Virus genome (UHGV): UHGV-1567883
Strand: one strand, 5' to 3'
DNA length: 16,300 nucleotides
Source: a virus
The position numbers were made by a program, and so were the translations under genes. The notes below the pieces were generated by a model. The model saw only the letters and a program-made list of their open reading frames with translations, did no database searches and was not told the origin of the DNA. This document shows positions 100 through 16,216 of this stretch, piece by piece (the first letter of the stretch is position 1; every line of letters starts with the position of its first letter).

Positions 100-1152
100 T
101 TATTTCCCCACCAGCTCGTTTATCTCTTTCACTGTCTGGTTAAACCGCTCTGACTCAAGCTCAACACCTAAGGCCCGACGCCCCAGCGCCATTGCTGCTT
201 TTATTGTGGAACCGGATCCCATAAAAAAATCAGCAACCAGATCACCAGGTCGACTACTGGCATTGATTATTTGCCTGAGCATATCCGCCGGTTTCTCACA
301 CGGATGTTTACCCGGGTAGAACTGAACGGGTTTATGCATCCAGACATCGGTATAAGGCACGGAGACTGATACGGAGAAATAGCGCCGGAGAGATTTAAAC
401 TCATCCAGCAATTCAGAATATTTGCGATTCAGTGAATCATAAGATGCCACCAGCTGGTGGTGTGGTTGTTCCAGTTGTTGTTCCTGAAACTTCTCTGCCG
501 CTATACGGGAAAACAGTGCCTGTAACTTCCGATAGTCAGCCTCATTCGGCAACTGCCACTGACTGGCACCAAACCAGTGGGAAACCATATTTTTCTTACC
601 TGTGGCTTCGGCAATTTGTTTTGCCGTTATACCCAGTTCGGCACGAGCATCCCTGAAATACGATATCAGCGGTGCCATTATGTGCTGTTTGAGTTCCCTT
701 TCTTTTGCCGCATAGCCGTCACTTTTGCCGCGATATGGCCCCTGGTAATGTTCAGCAAACAGAACGCGCTCTGTGGCAGGAAAATATGCGCGCAGACTTT
801 CTTTATTACACCCATTCCAACGTCCGGACGGCTTCGCCCAGATGATATGGTTAAGCACGTTGAAACGTTCACGCATCATGATCTCAATATCAGATGCCAG
901 GCGATGCCCACAGAACAGGTAAAGGCTTCCGGCAGGTTTTAACACCCGCCAGAACTGGGCCAGACAGTGGTCCAGCCACTTAAGGTAATCTTCGTCCCCT
1001 TTCCACTGATTGTCCCAACCGTTGGGTTTCACCTTGAAGTACGGCGGATCGGTAACAATCAGGTCAATGGAATCATCAGGCAGGGACTGAATAAAATGCA
1101 GGCAATCAGCGTTGATTAAATCAACACTGTTTATTTTTACAGTATTTTTCAT
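100..1152 (-). CDS. DNA methyltransferase, beta-class N6-adenine/N4-cytosine type (DPPY motif)
   Basis: 350 aa. SIDLIVTDPPY catalytic motif near the N-terminus and a C-terminal FMGSGST SAM-binding motif, the motif order of PF01555-type MTases (compare E. coli YhdJ). Central insertion of about 100 aa. Confidence 0.8.
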   Translation of the reverse strand: MKNTVKINSVDLINADCLHFIQSLPDDSIDLIVTDPPYFKVKPNGWDNQWKGDEDYLKWLDHCLAQFWRVLKPAGSLYLFCGHRLASDIEIMMRERFNVLNHIIWAKPSGRWNGCNKESLRAYFPATERVLFAEHYQGPYRGKSDGYAAKERELKQHIMAPLISYFRDARAELGITAKQIAEATGKKNMVSHWFGASQWQLPNEADYRKLQALFSRIAAEKFQEQQLEQPHHQLVASYDSLNRKYSELLDEFKSLRRYFSVSVSVPYTDVWMHKPVQFYPGKHPCEKPADMLRQIINASSRPGDLVADFFMGSGSTIKAAMALGRRALGVELESERFNQTVKEINELVGK

Positions 1153-4897: not shown

Positions 4898-5220
4898 ACT
4901 TTCAGGCCCCTCTCATGTAACCAGTGGGCTGCACGCAGCCTGGCGTTCTCCTCACCGGCAAGCAGTGCGCGGATGATACCGACCGCTTCGCTGTCGTCGT
5001 CCTTCACTGCGGTATGAAGCGTTATCCCCCGGGCCACGCCACGCTTTATCGTGATGACGCCTTTTTTCTCCAGTGCGCGAAGATGCTCCACCGCTGCATT
5101 CACCGAACGGTATCCCAGCATGGTTGCCACCTCCTGATTGGTTGGCGGAAAGCCACGCTCTTGCTGGTAAGAAATCAGCATATCCAGCACCTGCTGCTGG
5201 CATTGAGTTAACGTCGTCAT
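4894..5220 (-). CDS. LexA N-terminal DNA-binding-domain homologue lacking the S24 peptidase domain
   Basis: 108 aa; LTQCQQQVLDMLISYQQERGFPPTNQEVATMLGYRSVNAAVEHLRALEKKGVITIKRGVARGITL aligns motif-for-motif with the LexA winged-helix domain. No Ser/Lys catalytic domain. Translationally coupled (ATGA) to dam upstream and rusA downstream. Confidence 0.7.
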   Translation of the reverse strand: MTTLTQCQQQVLDMLISYQQERGFPPTNQEVATMLGYRSVNAAVEHLRALEKKGVITIKRGVARGITLHTAVKDDDSEAVGIIRALLAGEENARLRAAHWLHERGLKV

Positions 5221-5870
5221 GCCGCCATCTCCCTGACAAGTTTTTCTGCCTGCTGGCGAACCTGCGCCAGAAACGCCTCACCACATGCCTCAAGTTCATC
5301 GCGCCCGATGTAGCTGATTGCCGGTCCCTTCCAGGTCTTGTCGAAAACAGCAATAGCACCAGCGAAGAAAGCGCCTGTCGGCACCTGCTTCTCATCCTTC
5401 GGGATAAACCAGGCAGGCAGTTCAAAACCAATACGCCCGCGAATAAAAGCAATATGGTCCGCATCTTCCGGCCACCACACTTCGCTGGTGGCAGCTTTGA
5501 TCAGGAAAACATAGCGCCCGCCCTTATCACGCATGGCACTGGCATGTTTCATGATGTAACGCATGCCGGTGATGTATTGCCCCTCATGCTGACTGGCGCG
5601 GCTGTATGGGGGATTACCAAAGGCAGCACCTTTAAGCTCCGCAAGACGTTCTGACCAGTCATGCGCCAGCGCGTTGTCTTCCGCCGTGTAATACGCGGCA
5701 CATTTGGCGTTATCACCGTCAGTGAACAGATCCAGAACAAACGGACCAAACAAGGTGTTAATTCCCCAGAAAATGTTGTCCGGCGTGCGCCACTGATCGC
5801 CCACTTCCTTCAGTTCATGGGCTGGTTTGTTCCGCAGTTCTACCAGCGCCTGGCAATATTTATTACTCAT
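5217..5870 (-). CDS. Phage-type DNA N6-adenine methyltransferase (small Dam-like family)
   Basis: 217 aa; FGNPPY catalytic motif; size and layout of the phage N-6-adenine methyltransferase family (compare CPS-53 yfdM). Confidence 0.8.
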   Translation of the reverse strand: MSNKYCQALVELRNKPAHELKEVGDQWRTPDNIFWGINTLFGPFVLDLFTDGDNAKCAAYYTAEDNALAHDWSERLAELKGAAFGNPPYSRASQHEGQYITGMRYIMKHASAMRDKGGRYVFLIKAATSEVWWPEDADHIAFIRGRIGFELPAWFIPKDEKQVPTGAFFAGAIAVFDKTWKGPAISYIGRDELEACGEAFLAQVRQQAEKLVREMAA

Positions 5871-11858: not shown

Positions 11859-12065
11859 ATGCTGAACCTCGATTGCGTTCCAATCTCAACTTATTGCAAA
11901 GAAACTGGCGAAACTCCTGAAGCAATAAACAAACGTGTACAGCGCGGTGTTTGGCGTGAAGGTGTTCAGGTTTTAAAGGTTGAAGGCGTTAAGGAGAGGT
12001 GGATTGATCTTAGTGAGGTTGCAAAATGGGCCAGACAAAACTGCTCAAACTACCGCGCGGCGTAA
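11859..12065 (+). CDS. xis: Excisionase (Xis-like winged helix)
   Basis: 68 aa from the ATG at 11859 (GTGGAGA SD); directly upstream of and overlapping int by 40 nt, as in lambda xis-int. Confidence 0.6.
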   Translation: MLNLDCVPISTYCKETGETPEAINKRVQRGVWREGVQVLKVEGVKERWIDLSEVAKWARQNCSNYRAA

Positions 12066-13192
12066 CAATCAGGAAACACCGCCAGGGCGAAACGATCAAT
12101 ATAACTTTCACCTACAAAGGAGTTAAATGTCGTGAGCCTCTTTCCAATCTGGAAGTAACACCAAAGAACATTAAATACGCCGAGCGCACACTCGGCGAAA
12201 TTCATAATAAGATCGAAAGGGGAACATTCATTTATGCGGAATATTTTCCCCGTTCTGCTCGTTTGAAAATTTTTGGTAATGCTGCTGCAGGCAAAACGGT
12301 AAAAATGTACCTGGACGAATACCTTGAAATCTGCGAAACGAGAAAACTTTCACCCTCTACGATTGGTGGTTATAAAAAATGCCGTAGTGCGTTAGCCTCA
12401 CTCCACATTTGCCCTGCAAGTGAATTAACACCAGCAATCCTGAAAGCGTGGATTCAAAGCCAGAAAACGACCTTAAAAACAATTCGCAACCAGTTATCTT
12501 TCCTGCGGTCAGCACTTGATGAAGCCGTAACCGATGGGGTACTTCAAATTAACCCCGTATCGTTGGTAACTGCTTCGCGCTACCAAAGTGATAAGTCAGA
12601 AGCAGAAAGCAGCTACGTGGTTGATCCGCTATCACCAGCAGAAGTTGATGCATTACTAACAGCAGCCGGAAACAAACAATGGGAGAATCTGTTCCGGTTC
12701 GCTATACATACAGGCCTGCGTAGTTCTGAATTATGTGCCCTTCGATGGCGTGATATCGACTTTGTTGGAAAAACTGCCCATGTCCAGAGCGCAAGTGTTG
12801 TCGGTGTTATCAAAGGAACAAAGACAAAAGCCGGTACTCGTAAAGTTGAACTGACAGAAGATGCAATGTTGGCGCTGATAAATCAGAAGCCATTTACATT
12901 CATGAAGGATGCTACTGTCTTTGAAGATCCAAAGACCAATAAGCCCTGGGCAAGTGCTGATGCAATCAGGAAAAAAGCATGGGTGCCAACATTGCGAAAA
13001 GCAGGTATTCGTTACAGAAATCCATATCAAACCAGGCATACATTCGCCACCCGCCATATCAGCCGGGGAGCAAACCTGTTTTGGCTTGCAGCTCAAATGG
13101 GGCATAAAGGGCCGGAGATGCTTTTCAGGCACTATGGCTCATATCTGAAGGAATATGATGGACAAACAAGCTTGAAGAAGATAACAATATAA
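12026..13192 (+). CDS. int: Tyrosine integrase (lambda Int family with N-terminal arm-binding domain)
   Basis: 388 aa; catalytic R in TGLRSSEL, H/R in QTRHTFATRH, Tyr in LFRHYGSY; GAGG SD 7 nt upstream. Confidence 0.9.
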   Translation: MGQTKLLKLPRGVTIRKHRQGETINITFTYKGVKCREPLSNLEVTPKNIKYAERTLGEIHNKIERGTFIYAEYFPRSARLKIFGNAAAGKTVKMYLDEYLEICETRKLSPSTIGGYKKCRSALASLHICPASELTPAILKAWIQSQKTTLKTIRNQLSFLRSALDEAVTDGVLQINPVSLVTASRYQSDKSEAESSYVVDPLSPAEVDALLTAAGNKQWENLFRFAIHTGLRSSELCALRWRDIDFVGKTAHVQSASVVGVIKGTKTKAGTRKVELTEDAMLALINQKPFTFMKDATVFEDPKTNKPWASADAIRKKAWVPTLRKAGIRYRNPYQTRHTFATRHISRGANLFWLAAQMGHKGPEMLFRHYGSYLKEYDGQTSLKKITI

Positions 13193-13250
13193 TCCAAGCA
13201 TGAAACTATTGGCCACAATTTGTGGCCATTTTACGGAGCAAGATAGAAAC

Positions 13251-14984
13251 ATGGCAAATCAAATTACCAAACTAAAAAATATAAATGTTGTGAAGTTTCG
13301 CGGACTGAAAAATATAAACATCGAGTTTGGTTCTCGCCTAACTGTTATTTGTGGTAAAAATGGCACATCTAAATCCACAATTCTTGGCATTATCGCCCAA
13401 ATATTTAGCTTTACAAAGGACTTTACCAAAAACCCTGAGACTGATTTAACACAATATAAAACATTAACAAATGGCAGCTTCAAGTCAGCTTTCAGCGAAC
13501 ATTTTAGGCTTTCAGAACAATTTGATGTTCCTGGTTCAATGGACGTCAAAATTAGTGTCTATGATGGTGCATCGAACAAACATCTTGAAAAACTAACATT
13601 AGGTTTATACAGCTACAGTGACAGAGATAAATCTAGGCCTGTAGTCAGGGGAAATGATTCAATACCGGAAAAAAACCAAAGTAGAAACGTTACTCATCCT
13701 GTTATTTTTTTAAGCTTAGCACGACTTCTTCCTATTACATTAAGGACTGATTACTCAACACGGGATGTTCAGTACATCAATGAAAATTCTGATGAAATCA
13801 GAATGATGAGTAACCAACTCTTACTAAAAAACAATGGAAGCTCAGTAACAGCAACAAAAGGTACTATCGATTCAATGGTTGTCCATGGTGACAATTATGA
13901 TCACCAATCAGTATCTGTTGGTGAAGATAATGTTGGACAATTAATCCAGGCAATTTTTTCATTTAAAAGATTGAAGGAAACTTATTCTGATTATCATGGC
14001 GGAATATTGTTAATTGATGAAGCCGATGCAGGTCTTTTCCCTGCGGCACAGTTAGAGCTAATTAATATTCTAACTAAAGCAGCAAAACAATACGATCTGC
14101 AAATAATCATGACCTCGCACTCTCCATTAATAATAGAGGATATCTATAATCGTTCAAAACAAGATAGTGATAGCTTTAAAACAATATATCTTACAGACAC
14201 ATATGGAGATATTAAAACAAAGAATAATCTTTCATGGACAGATATCCACGCTGATTTACATGTTGAAACTGTAAAAATTAATGATGACATTTGTCTTCCA
14301 AAGGCAAATGTATATTTTGAAGACAAAGAAGGTTTCGACTTTTTCAAACAATTGATAACAGATCGAAAAATAAATAAAATATTAAATCCATTAGGAAATA
14401 TAAATATTAGCTGCTCTGCCATGCTTGACTTAATGGCAAGAAAAATACCAGAATTTACAGCTAAAAGCTTGATCGTCTTAGACGGTGATGTTGTTCACGA
14501 CAACAGTGCTAATGCAAAAAAAGCCAAAAAAGAAAAAAACTTATGTTTGCTTCCAAGCACCTTACCTCCAGACCAAATGATTTTTGAGTTTTTATATAAT
14601 TTACCACCTGATGATGCATATTGGGAAAATAAAAATAAATTTACAAAAGCTGTTTTTATGAAAACAGCTAAAGACATAATTGCAACGCTAAAGATTGGTA
14701 ACGCTCCGATTGATTTAAAAATCCTTATAGATAATTATAAAAAAGTTAACAAAAACCATGGAGGGAGAGTTAGAAAACTGTTTAAAGATTTTGCACATAC
14801 GACTCAATTTCAGGCCCAAGTCAAAGGAAGAGTTAAAGATAACCCATATCGATATTGGGTCGAGAAAAATCCTGTTCAATCGGATAGCTTCAAGAATGAA
14901 CTAATAAAGAGTCTTAAAGTTATTATGATAAGTGGACATGGTGTCGATTCTGCTACCATCTCATCATATCTGTCAGATAACTAA
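13251..14984 (+). CDS. OLD-family-like nuclease candidate: N-terminal ABC-type ATPase plus C-terminal TOPRIM-like domain
   Basis: Walker A CGKNGTSKST (nt 13350-13379), Walker B/D-loop ILLIDEAD (14014-14028), H-loop TSHSP (14112-14126), TOPRIM-like EGFD (14328-14339) and LIVLDGD (DxD at 14481-14489). The gene is visibly AT-rich. Alternative start at 13200. Confidence 0.7.
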   Translation: MANQITKLKNINVVKFRGLKNINIEFGSRLTVICGKNGTSKSTILGIIAQIFSFTKDFTKNPETDLTQYKTLTNGSFKSAFSEHFRLSEQFDVPGSMDVKISVYDGASNKHLEKLTLGLYSYSDRDKSRPVVRGNDSIPEKNQSRNVTHPVIFLSLARLLPITLRTDYSTRDVQYINENSDEIRMMSNQLLLKNNGSSVTATKGTIDSMVVHGDNYDHQSVSVGEDNVGQLIQAIFSFKRLKETYSDYHGGILLIDEADAGLFPAAQLELINILTKAAKQYDLQIIMTSHSPLIIEDIYNRSKQDSDSFKTIYLTDTYGDIKTKNNLSWTDIHADLHVETVKINDDICLPKANVYFEDKEGFDFFKQLITDRKINKILNPLGNINISCSAMLDLMARKIPEFTAKSLIVLDGDVVHDNSANAKKAKKEKNLCLLPSTLPPDQMIFEFLYNLPPDDAYWENKNKFTKAVFMKTAKDIIATLKIGNAPIDLKILIDNYKKVNKNHGGRVRKLFKDFAHTTQFQAQVKGRVKDNPYRYWVEKNPVQSDSFKNELIKSLKVIMISGHGVDSATISSYLSDN

Positions 14985-14996
14985 TTGATTAAAAAA

Positions 14997-15030
14997 GGGT
15001 TTTATGTGATGGCCATAAAGCCCTTTTTTT
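14997..15030 (+). terminator. Strong intrinsic terminator between the OLD-like gene and the Dam-family MTase gene
   Basis: 10-bp stem GGGTTTTATG / CATAAAGCCC (one G-U pair), 7-nt loop, then a 7-T run. Confidence 0.75.
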
Positions 15031-15064
15031 GATATACTTTAGATCTGACATTTAGAGGTATCAT
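15029..15064 (+). promoter_or_regulatory. Candidate extended -10 promoter and SD of the Dam-family MTase gene, overlapping a GATC
   Basis: TGaTATACT extended -10 (15030-15038); AGATCT with GATC at 15042-15045 near the predicted start; SD AGAGG 15054-15058; ATG 15065. Confidence 0.35.
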
Positions 15065-15964
15065 ATGCGTTTTAACACCCCACTTCGCTATCCTGGCGGT
15101 AAAGGCAAGCTTGCAAATTTCATGCTTCGGATTATTGAAGAAAATAATCTTTCGCCTATACATTATGCCGAACCATATGCTGGGGGTGCTGGTTTAGCAT
15201 TGAAACTGTTACATCTAAATGCAGCTGAAAAAATCATCCTTAATGATATTAATATTTCTGTTTATGCTTTTTGGCACAGTGTATTAAATCATGCAGATCA
15301 ATTATGTTCTTTAATTGAAAGAACAGAAGTTACAATGGATGAATGGTTTAGGCAGAAAGATATAATTAATAATCCTAAAGACCATGATCTTTTAACAATT
15401 GGTTTCTCAACCTTTTTTCTCAATAGAACAAATCGTTCTGGAATATTAAAAGGTGGAGTAATTGGCGGTAAAAATCAAGAAGGGAAATGGAAGCTTGACG
15501 CTCGCTATAATAAGAGTGATTTGATTTCTCGAATCCATAAAATATCAGAAAATCGTCACAGAATAGATTTATATAACATGGATGCAATTGATTTCATTAA
15601 AAAAATAGTTACTCAATTGCCACAAAACTCATTAACATATTTGGATCCACCTTATTACATAAAAGGTAAAGGTTTATATATCAACCATTATGATCATGAT
15701 GATCATGTTAGGGTTGCAAAAGTCGTACAGAATAATATTAAAACACCTTGGATTGTTTCTTACGATAACACTCCTGAGATCCAAGCTATGTATAAGACAT
15801 CATCATTAGTATATGGAATAAACTACAGTGCTCAAGATCGGTACAAAGGATCTGAGGTAATGTTCTTCAGTGAACGATTGAAAATCTTTAAAACAGATGA
15901 TCCAACTAAGGTAAAAGCGCCTGTATTTAAAAGAGGATGTGTTGACGACCACATCCAGACATAA
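15065..15964 (+). CDS. Dam-family (D12 class) DNA N6-adenine methyltransferase
   Basis: 299 aa; aligns by motif to E. coli Dam: PGGK near the N-terminus, SAM motif EPYAGGAG, NRTNRSG region, catalytic DPPY. AT-rich. Confidence 0.85.
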   Translation: MRFNTPLRYPGGKGKLANFMLRIIEENNLSPIHYAEPYAGGAGLALKLLHLNAAEKIILNDINISVYAFWHSVLNHADQLCSLIERTEVTMDEWFRQKDIINNPKDHDLLTIGFSTFFLNRTNRSGILKGGVIGGKNQEGKWKLDARYNKSDLISRIHKISENRHRIDLYNMDAIDFIKKIVTQLPQNSLTYLDPPYYIKGKGLYINHYDHDDHVRVAKVVQNNIKTPWIVSYDNTPEIQAMYKTSSLVYGINYSAQDRYKGSEVMFFSERLKIFKTDDPTKVKAPVFKRGCVDDHIQT

Positions 15965-16036
15965 AAGGAGCCGCAAAAGATCCGCAGAATAAAATGGTTA
16001 GTATTAATCGTTTTATTTCAGCTAATTATAAAAATA

Positions 16037-16075
16037 CGGACTCGGGTTCAACTCCCGCCAGCCAATCATGATTGG
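16037..16075 (+). other. tmRNA (ssrA) 3'-end-like fragment plus 14-bp perfect palindrome: candidate att core
   Basis: CGGACTCGGGTTCAACTCCCGCCAGC (16037-16062) matches my recollection of the E. coli ssrA 3' T-arm/acceptor region except one base and lacks the terminal TCCACCA; followed by CCAATCATGATTGG (16062-16075). Confidence 0.4.
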
Positions 16076-16194
16076 ACGGTGTAAGGACTACACCAACAAA
16101 AACAGGAAGTTATAAGTCTCAGCAGGACACCGACCAGACGGTGAGGAGACAAAAAAGGATACGCAACGGAGTCGCGACTCCCTATGACATTAAA

Positions 16195-16216
16195 GCCCGC
16201 TGATGCGGGCTTTTTT
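16195..16216 (+). terminator. Intrinsic terminator
   Basis: GCCCGC-tgat-GCGGGC followed by a 6-T run. Confidence 0.6.

Follow-up and report, generated by a model that had tools for sequence, protein, structure and literature searches.

The viral genome UHGV-1567883 was analysed as a single stretch of 16,300 nucleotides (the window), which represents the right arm of an Escherichia coli lambdoid prophage. Between its integrase gene (int) and an att-like site lie two genes of the same strand: gene 1 codes for an ABC ATPase with a probable, divergent TOPRIM nuclease domain, and gene 2 for a D12-class N6-adenine DNA methyltransferase (hereafter the methylase) akin to that of the PD-lambda-5 defence system. 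A previous reading, made from the letters and open reading frames (ORFs) of the window (the sequence-only reading), had offered three options for these genes: a methylation-gated, restriction-like module, a stand-alone class 1 OLD-like exclusion nuclease next to an orphan methylase, or two independent morons. Our results favour a linked, methylation-related module, and the last option is rejected on the adjacency of the two genes in 78 of 80 species-level loci. We consider it very probable that the two genes are functionally linked in some way for defence. Judging from sequence, we are inclined, if not strongly, towards the view that they form one restriction-modification (RM)-like anti-phage module carried as prophage cargo.

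Conservation of the ATPase-methylase pair

A scan of one genome per species placed the ATPase at 80 loci, which belong to Gamma- and Betaproteobacteria, Bacteroidota, Mycobacterium, Listeria, Acidobacteria and others. The methylase gene adjoins the ATPase gene in 78 of them, and in the other two the contig ends right after the ATPase gene. In 74 loci the methylase gene follows the ATPase gene immediately and in the same orientation, the aligned segments being 41-172 nt apart; the other four differ in gene order or orientation and keep the adjacency. When the flanking ORFs of the 80 loci were clustered, only the ATPase and the methylase proved universal. A helicase and a Type III methylase were rejected as a third conserved gene, since they occur in only 17-21 of the 80 loci. 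No ATPase without a methylase was found among the 80 loci, the two at contig edges aside, as would be expected if the effector were harmful in the absence of modification. The sequence-only reading had named co-occurrence across genomes as a check on its proposal, and the two genes do indeed stand side by side outside the window locus. The family is common: of 5426 complete E. coli genomes, 85 contain the pair, and at least 80 species of several phyla have related loci. Most pair loci are chromosomal islands, not phages. In two loci, from Symbiopectobacterium sp. (L002 6001-8664) and Listeria rocourtiae (L078 6001-8515), both genes align as split or frame-shifted segments, which suggests that ATPase and methylase have decayed together.

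In about 20 loci, mostly betaproteobacterial or from Bacteroidota and non-enteric, the pair is flanked by an HKD-Snf2 helicase on one side and a Type III-like methylase on the other. The helicase matches PADLOC C3a139 and, more weakly, DrmD and HmaA. Examples are L070 (1888-5094 and 8615-10564), L018, L027, L030, L033-L035, L041, L053 and L065. This is the pattern of one defence system embedded within another, and it was an embedding of this kind that led to the discovery of the ATPase-TOPRIM defence protein HEC-04.

The longest ORF of gene 1 extends from 13200 to 14984 (+) and codes for 594 amino acids (aa), as had been read, and the 299-aa ORF of gene 2 was likewise recovered on the same strand. 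The conserved start of gene 1 is instead the ATG at 13251 (MANQITKL), on which the start of RefSeq WP_001596855.1 (labelled 'AAA family ATPase') and those of the homologues agree (Table 1). The 1109 homologues are full-length and have a conserved size of ∼575 aa. Over its whole length the protein matches phrog_3940, a family of unknown function, at 6e-201. Pfam assigns it to ABC-type ATPase families alone (AAA_15, AAA_21 and AAA_23), within residues 25-313, and its NCBIfam matches are all far below the cut-offs. The ATPase motifs, namely Walker A (G35-K36), Q50, the signature (S220-N227), Walker B (D256-E257) and the H-loop (H290), are invariant among 29 diverse homologues. The same holds for a PPDQ..FE motif and for GKNGTSKST, LLIDEAD and TSHSP, the stretches from which the ATPase had been recognized. 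A conserved insert in the domain is rich in invariant Arg, His and Asn residues (H84, R86, R129, R133, S144-P150, R158 and R165). With PADLOC, many partial ATPase matches were obtained (PtuA, AriA, GajA and HEC-04), and one ATPase-Toprim model reached residue 452.

The full-length protein was modelled with AlphaFold (AF2) from the family alignment (pLDDT 87.7). In a Foldseek search, the best Protein Data Bank (PDB) matches of this model were GajA and Thermus OLD, both aligned over the whole length, and the matches to PtuA and Rad50 were confined to the ATPase part. The model of the C-terminal half had OLD-type TOPRIM domains as its best matches and OLD C-terminal regions among the top domain matches, at weak statistical significance; the closest folds are those of AriB and of a retron TOPRIM protein. 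In the TOPRIM-like core, the invariant residues E357-D358 ('YFED', 14319-14324) close strand 1, and D411xD413 ('LDGDV', 14481-14489), equally invariant in the 29 members, closes strand 3. Of the two acidic motifs that had been proposed, the DxD thus stands, and the 'EGxD' does not: E360, G361 and D363 are variable, and E357-D358 are conserved instead. The only recurrent sequence link of this half is to the PADLOC HEC-04 model, which matches it in 6 of 16 family members (best 8.4e-5), the window protein itself not being among them. Taken together, the product of gene 1 is probably an OLD/HEC-04-like ATPase with a divergent TOPRIM nuclease domain, as far as can be judged from the models. The OLD/GajA-type architecture of the sequence-only reading is therefore borne out for the overall fold, and membership in the OLD family proper is not established. 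Following the TOPRIM-like core, the protein ends in an all-helical domain with invariant R508, F511, K512, N531, P532 and W536. Neither Pfam (on 16 members) nor a PDB profile search gave a family match for this domain, and that it serves for docking or DNA binding is only a guess.

Gene 2 codes for a complete D12-class adenine methylase, in agreement with what had been read from its sequence. It matches the PADLOC model PD-Lambda-5_B at 2e-124 (412.6 bits; residues 1-282 of the protein, 283 of the 291 profile positions) and MTase_II at 1.8e-107. Motif I (EPYAGGAG, 15170-15193) and motif IV (DPPY, 15644-15655) are invariant in 14 sequences, and the closest solved relative is 7m6b. Since it falls below the cut-off of the NCBIfam Dam model, gene 2 is by that measure not a GATC Dam orthologue. 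In the methylome papers on the E. coli lineages ST131 and ST101 we found no motif assigned to the gene 2 methylase; the D12 methylase of those papers (M.EcoMIV, P423_04965) sits elsewhere in the genome and has no assigned motif. E. coli JJ1886 carries the pair plus a 388-aa restriction endonuclease with an Mrr_cat domain (L169 29467-30633; NC_022648.1 5074467-5075633), which occupies the mrr position beside a Type I system and differs from K-12 Mrr. This variant may tolerate the methylation mark, or the methylase may be silent in lysogens.

Relation to PD-lambda-5 and to other systems

PD-lambda-5, a methyltransferase paired with a ParB/HEPN protein, came out of a functional selection in E. 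coli. It was protective against almost every phage examined, T-even phages above all. Its cloning required an mrr-deleted K-12 host, and its authors labelled it a compacted prophage 'RM+Abi' system (Vassallo et al. 2022, PMC9519451). Like the pair in the window, it is a two-gene, prophage-borne module in which a methylase of the same family has the effector immediately upstream on the same strand. The methylase of the P2-hotspot locus is 51% identical to that of the window. The partners differ, PD-lambda-5 having a ParB/HEPN protein in the place of the ABC ATPase with a TOPRIM-like domain. In a BLASTP comparison with a true PD-Lambda-5_A, gene 1 showed no similarity (E = 2.7), and PD-Lambda-5_A models are absent from its 25 best PADLOC matches. 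In E. coli, the methylase family also adjoins ParB-domain proteins in the P2 hotspot and in a Stx-like prophage, and on these partners the PD-Lambda-5_A models score 558 and 248 bits.

The exchange of partners is also seen in viral contigs, where 61 loci code for a methylase with 38% identity or more to that of the window. A ParB/PD-Lambda-5_A-like protein is the neighbour in 29 of the 61 and an ABC ATPase in 21, the latter ranging from close relatives to proteins only 24-32% identical. The remaining 11 loci, some of them at contig edges, have neither partner. When the methylases are arranged in a neighbour-joining tree, the partner types come out intermixed. Six loci hold the ATPase, a ParB protein and a single D12 methylase, in four gene orders (L003 3237-7683; L009 6001-10502; L032 3050-7641; L076 6001-9995; L094 795-4825; L095 2944-6420), and these are exactly the genome loci in which the methylase is not directly downstream of the ATPase. 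From the intermixed partners and the three-gene loci it can be deduced that the methylase is the constant core, around which effectors are exchangeable and stackable. Most likely, the ATPase-methylase pair is an undescribed sibling of PD-lambda-5. Should the pair act in the way proposed below, PD-lambda-5 would belong to a larger, plug-and-play family assembled around a single methylase.

The nearest validated relative of gene 1 is HEC-04, a single-gene ATPase-TOPRIM defence protein that was tested without a methylase. It loses defence upon mutation of Walker A or of E319, D375 and D377, and it is toxic when induced (Payne et al. 2024, bioRxiv 10.1101/2024.01.29.577857). As in gene 1, the ABC ATPase and the C-terminal TOPRIM domain form one polypeptide, and the acidic site of HEC-04 has nearly the same spacing as E357/D411/D413 of gene 1, in which K36 is conserved as well. 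The relationship is remote: on the whole gene 1 protein the HEC-04 profile scores 57.7 bits (2e-16), mostly over the ATPase motifs. HEC-04 stands alone, whereas the gene 1 family, which is ∼80 residues longer and has the extra helical domain, is tied to a D12 methylase as its obligate neighbour, found next to it in 78 of the 80 loci. The OLD family (P2 Old, Thermus and Burkholderia OLD, GajA) has the same architecture of an N-terminal ABC ATPase and a C-terminal TOPRIM, and P2 Old is prophage cargo too. In the TOPRIM half, however, no sequence homology to gene 1 is detectable.

No UvrD/GajB-type helicase recurs in the flanks of the 80 loci, and in the window int lies upstream and the methylase gene downstream of gene 1, in agreement with the absence of such a partner in the sequence-only reading. 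To our knowledge, a methylase partner is not part of any OLD class described so far, and none was found in the searchable literature. PARIS (AriA/AriB) and AbiL (AbiLi/AbiLii) differ in being made of two separate proteins without a methylase, and the AriA and AriAB matches of PADLOC on gene 1 cover only the ATPase motifs. As in Type II and Type III RM systems, a methylase with intact catalytic motifs lies beside a putative nuclease, and methylase-free effectors are absent. The ATP-dependent effector next to a methylase recalls Res/Mod of Type III systems in particular. Unlike those systems, gene 1 has neither a classical restriction nuclease fold nor an SF2 helicase domain.

The sequence-only reading knew of no OLD-type nuclease paired with a dedicated methylase, and we likewise found no OLD/TOPRIM plus adenine-methylase system in the searchable literature, where an earlier bioinformatic mention may nonetheless exist. 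Neither the DefensePredictor paper nor its supplements list the accessions of genes 1 and 2. OLD-ABC/TOPRIM modules do appear in the BREX survey, the ATPase-methylase pair does not, and the matching PADLOC models, PHROGs and NCBIfam do not name the pair; gene 1 has no PADLOC model of its own. Each part is known in kind, from OLD, GajA and HEC-04 and from the PD-lambda-5-type methylases, and what appears to be new is the obligate pairing.

Candidate modes of action

In the restriction-like scheme that we favour, the D12 methylase would mark the lysogen's DNA with N6-methyladenine, labelling it as self, and the ABC ATPase-TOPRIM protein would be an ATP-dependent effector that attacks, or is unleashed by, DNA without the mark. 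Its predicted properties are nuclease activity, self protection by methylation, a physical complex of the two proteins and anti-phage activity. The methylase would supply a self/non-self signal common to different effectors, and perhaps it is also their DNA-recognition partner, like Mod in Type III systems. Such a shared signal is probable because unrelated effectors are swapped and stacked around one highly conserved methylase. If the pair works in this way, an ABC ATPase-TOPRIM nuclease would join the short list of restriction effector types, and the prophage would offer a tractable E. coli example of how methylation gates an OLD-like nuclease. The scheme would be relevant also to phage therapy and, in clinical lineages such as ST131, to barriers against transformation. 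Methylome studies in which such methylases are called orphans may miss the neighbouring effector gene. We are more doubtful of a further step, in which the D12 methylase is the hub of a new RM class that marks self and recruits or licenses unrelated, interchangeable effectors (ATPase-TOPRIM, ParB/HEPN or both). Were it true, TOPRIM would become a bona fide restriction nuclease fold and, the discrimination being based on adenine, the system could act even on the cytosine-modified DNA of T-even phages.

Several observations weigh against a restriction-like mechanism. The TOPRIM assignment is statistically weak and has no support at the sequence level: Pfam (covering 16 members), NCBIfam and a PDB profile search gave no sequence match in the C-terminal half of gene 1, Pfam recovered ATPase families alone from ten distant ATPase partners, and hhalign aligned only the Walker B region of the family profile with P2 Old. 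Among the profiles that the sequence-only reading had named, AAA_15/AAA_21 and MethyltransfD12 were accordingly found and Toprim was not; nor was DUF4435, in the window protein or in the C-terminal half of the 16 members. The structure prediction that it had also named returned a TOPRIM-like fold, a support that is structural and modest. The methylase family is conserved end to end, with no hypervariable target-recognition segment in the 14 sequences, and in the window a terminator-like hairpin parts the two genes. HEC-04 defends alone, so that ATPase-TOPRIM effectors do not intrinsically need a methylation mark. AriB, one of the structurally closest TOPRIM domains, is reported to be a tRNA-cleaving abortive-infection effector (PMC12839542). 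Finally, the protection given by PD-lambda-5 is stronger towards T-even phages than towards lambda or T7 (PMC9519451), an unusual pattern for a classical restriction system.

Some of this would suit the main rival, an abortive-infection or guard module in which a phage-triggered ATPase-TOPRIM sensor-effector, in the style of HEC-04, P2 Old or PARIS, degrades tRNA or host DNA, and the methylase is a regulator, an antitoxin or a monitored component, guarded for instance against anti-restriction proteins. We hold this design to be possible rather than probable. It gains from the toxicity and methylase-free action of HEC-04, from AriB and the retron protein as closest C-terminal folds, and from the 'RM+Abi' interpretation of PD-lambda-5 with its strong effect on T-even phages. 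The three-gene loci can be read as PD-lambda-5 with an added guard, and phage anti-defence proteins are the reported triggers of related ABC ATPase systems (10.1101/2024.01.29.577857). However, in 74 of the 78 loci the methylase is the sole partner, and hence there is no restriction component to guard. A regulatory role would leave the invariant catalytic motifs of the methylase unexplained, and the absence of a methylase-free ATPase fits self protection by modification at least equally well.

That the two genes are unrelated morons, with a class 1 OLD-like exclusion nuclease acting alone and a Dam-like orphan methylase beside it by chance, could draw on the hairpin and promoter-like site that separate them, on the frequency of orphan methylases in prophages (the window has two more) and on the 11 viral loci whose methylase has no known partner. 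Against this, adjacency persists over several phyla, in rearranged orders too, and in the loci of Symbiopectobacterium and Listeria the two genes seem to be disrupted jointly. With 78 of the 80 species-level loci keeping the genes adjacent, the probability of a chance association is so small that we regard it as ruled out. Quite improbable as well is a role outside defence, with the methylase protecting or regulating phage DNA and the ATPase serving as an SMC-, RecF- or Rad50-like factor of recombination, repair or replication. What would point there are weak matches to SMC_N, RecF and Rad50 in Pfam and NCBIfam; these are limited to the P-loop region and lie far below the curated cut-offs. Furthermore, gene 1 lies outside the phage replication module, a sister prophage has AbiL in the same slot, most of the loci are in chromosomal islands, and ∼20 loci lie inside the helicase-methylase defence islands.

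The cargo slot and its surroundings

The features of the cargo region are collected in Table 1.

Table 1. Features of the gene pair and its surroundings in the window.
Feature	Position	Strand	Basis
Tyrosine integrase gene, left edge of the cargo slot	12026..13192	+	Pfam Arm-DNA-bind_2 5e-23, Phage_integrase 3e-16
Gene 1, ABC ATPase-TOPRIM-like protein, 577 aa, putative effector	13251..14984	+	ORF, RefSeq start, homologue starts
ABC ATPase domain of gene 1, residues 1 to ∼335	13251..14255	+	Pfam AAA_15 3.8e-15, AAA_21 4e-12, both above cut-offs
TOPRIM-like core of gene 1, residues ∼345-450	14283..14600	+	Fold and invariant acidic residues
C-terminal all-helical domain of gene 1, residues 466-577	14646..14981	+	AF2 secondary structure, invariant columns
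Hairpin with U-run resembling an intrinsic terminator	14988..15033	+	RNA fold -18 kcal/mol, z = -4.17
Promoter-like match upstream of the methylase gene, TGGCCA-17-TATACT with extended TG	15010..15038	+	9/12 consensus; weak
Gene 2, D12-class N6-adenine DNA methyltransferase, PD-Lambda-5_B family, 299 aa	15065..15964	+	Pfam MethyltransfD12 1.8e-19
Putative att core, duplicated ssrA (tmRNA) 3′ end, right prophage edge	16040..16065	+	Sequence GGACTCGGGTTCAACTCCCGCCAGC

Over the gene pair, the window is 100% identical to an E. coli MS21324 record, in which the order is lysis, Q, replication and immunity genes, yfdPQR, int, the two cargo genes and chromosomal glaH/lhgO/gabD. The cargo block is more AT-rich than the prophage backbone, as had been noticed, with a GC content of 0.32-0.35 over 13501-16000 vs ∼0.43-0.57. 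Its right border at ∼16040-16065, GGACTCGGGTTCAACTCCCGCCAGC, is similar to the 3′ terminus of ssrA in E. coli. With Rfam there was a weak tmRNA match at 16043-16057 (model positions 348-362 of 374) and no RNA gene in the window at the gathering threshold, and ARAGORN found no complete tRNA or tmRNA in the window. The weak 3′-end match together with the lack of a complete gene fits an attR core. Past this core, at 16192-16213 (+), lies a hairpin like a strong terminator, with 9 pairs (6 G-C) and a T-run behind them. It is probably the original ssrA terminator, displaced when the prophage inserted.

The placement of the pair as prophage cargo between int and an att-like site, proposed in the sequence-only reading, agrees with what is seen in sister prophages: the int-att slot is a hotspot in which the cargo varies. 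The integrase gene was found in 412 E. coli genomes and the ATPase-methylase pair in only 85, and where the cargo differs, homology among the integrase-bearing genomes stops just ahead of the int stop codon. In the E. coli O103:H2 prophage (L167 6388-8339) the slot holds AbiLi/AbiLii, a known ATPase and TOPRIM-type defence system. In E. coli IHE3034 (L165 6165-8035) it holds three genes of the opposite strand, one of them with a STAS-like domain; the trio has no PADLOC match and may be an undescribed defence system. The slot of E. coli R13 (L166 6215-6994) carries one 259-aa protein of unknown function. E. coli L65 has a second, divergent module (L082 3976-6615; ATPase 47% and methylase 58% identical to the window pair), located in the equivalent position, between the att flank at icd and the int gene of an e14-like prophage, this int being interrupted by IS1.

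Between gene 1 and gene 2, the hairpin at 14988-15033 was matched in folding by 1 of 200 shuffled sequences and was not flagged by a simple terminator scan. The methylase gene had been credited with its own promoter. This claim did not hold up: promoter-like sites in the region number 11, vs 13.0 ± 3.5 expected by chance from shuffled sequence.

Two further prophage methyltransferase genes lie in the window, at 100-1152 (-) and 5217-5870 (-), named in RefSeq 'DNA-methyltransferase' and 'phage N-6-adenine-methyltransferase', respectively, so that three methylases occur within 16 kb. A second AT-rich patch (1501-2500; GC content 0.37-0.40) contains a 148-aa ORF of hypothetical annotation (1768-2214, +), for which PADLOC gave no match. 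This ORF may be another moron; it lies between the Q antiterminator gene and a methylase gene, on the strand opposite to its neighbours.

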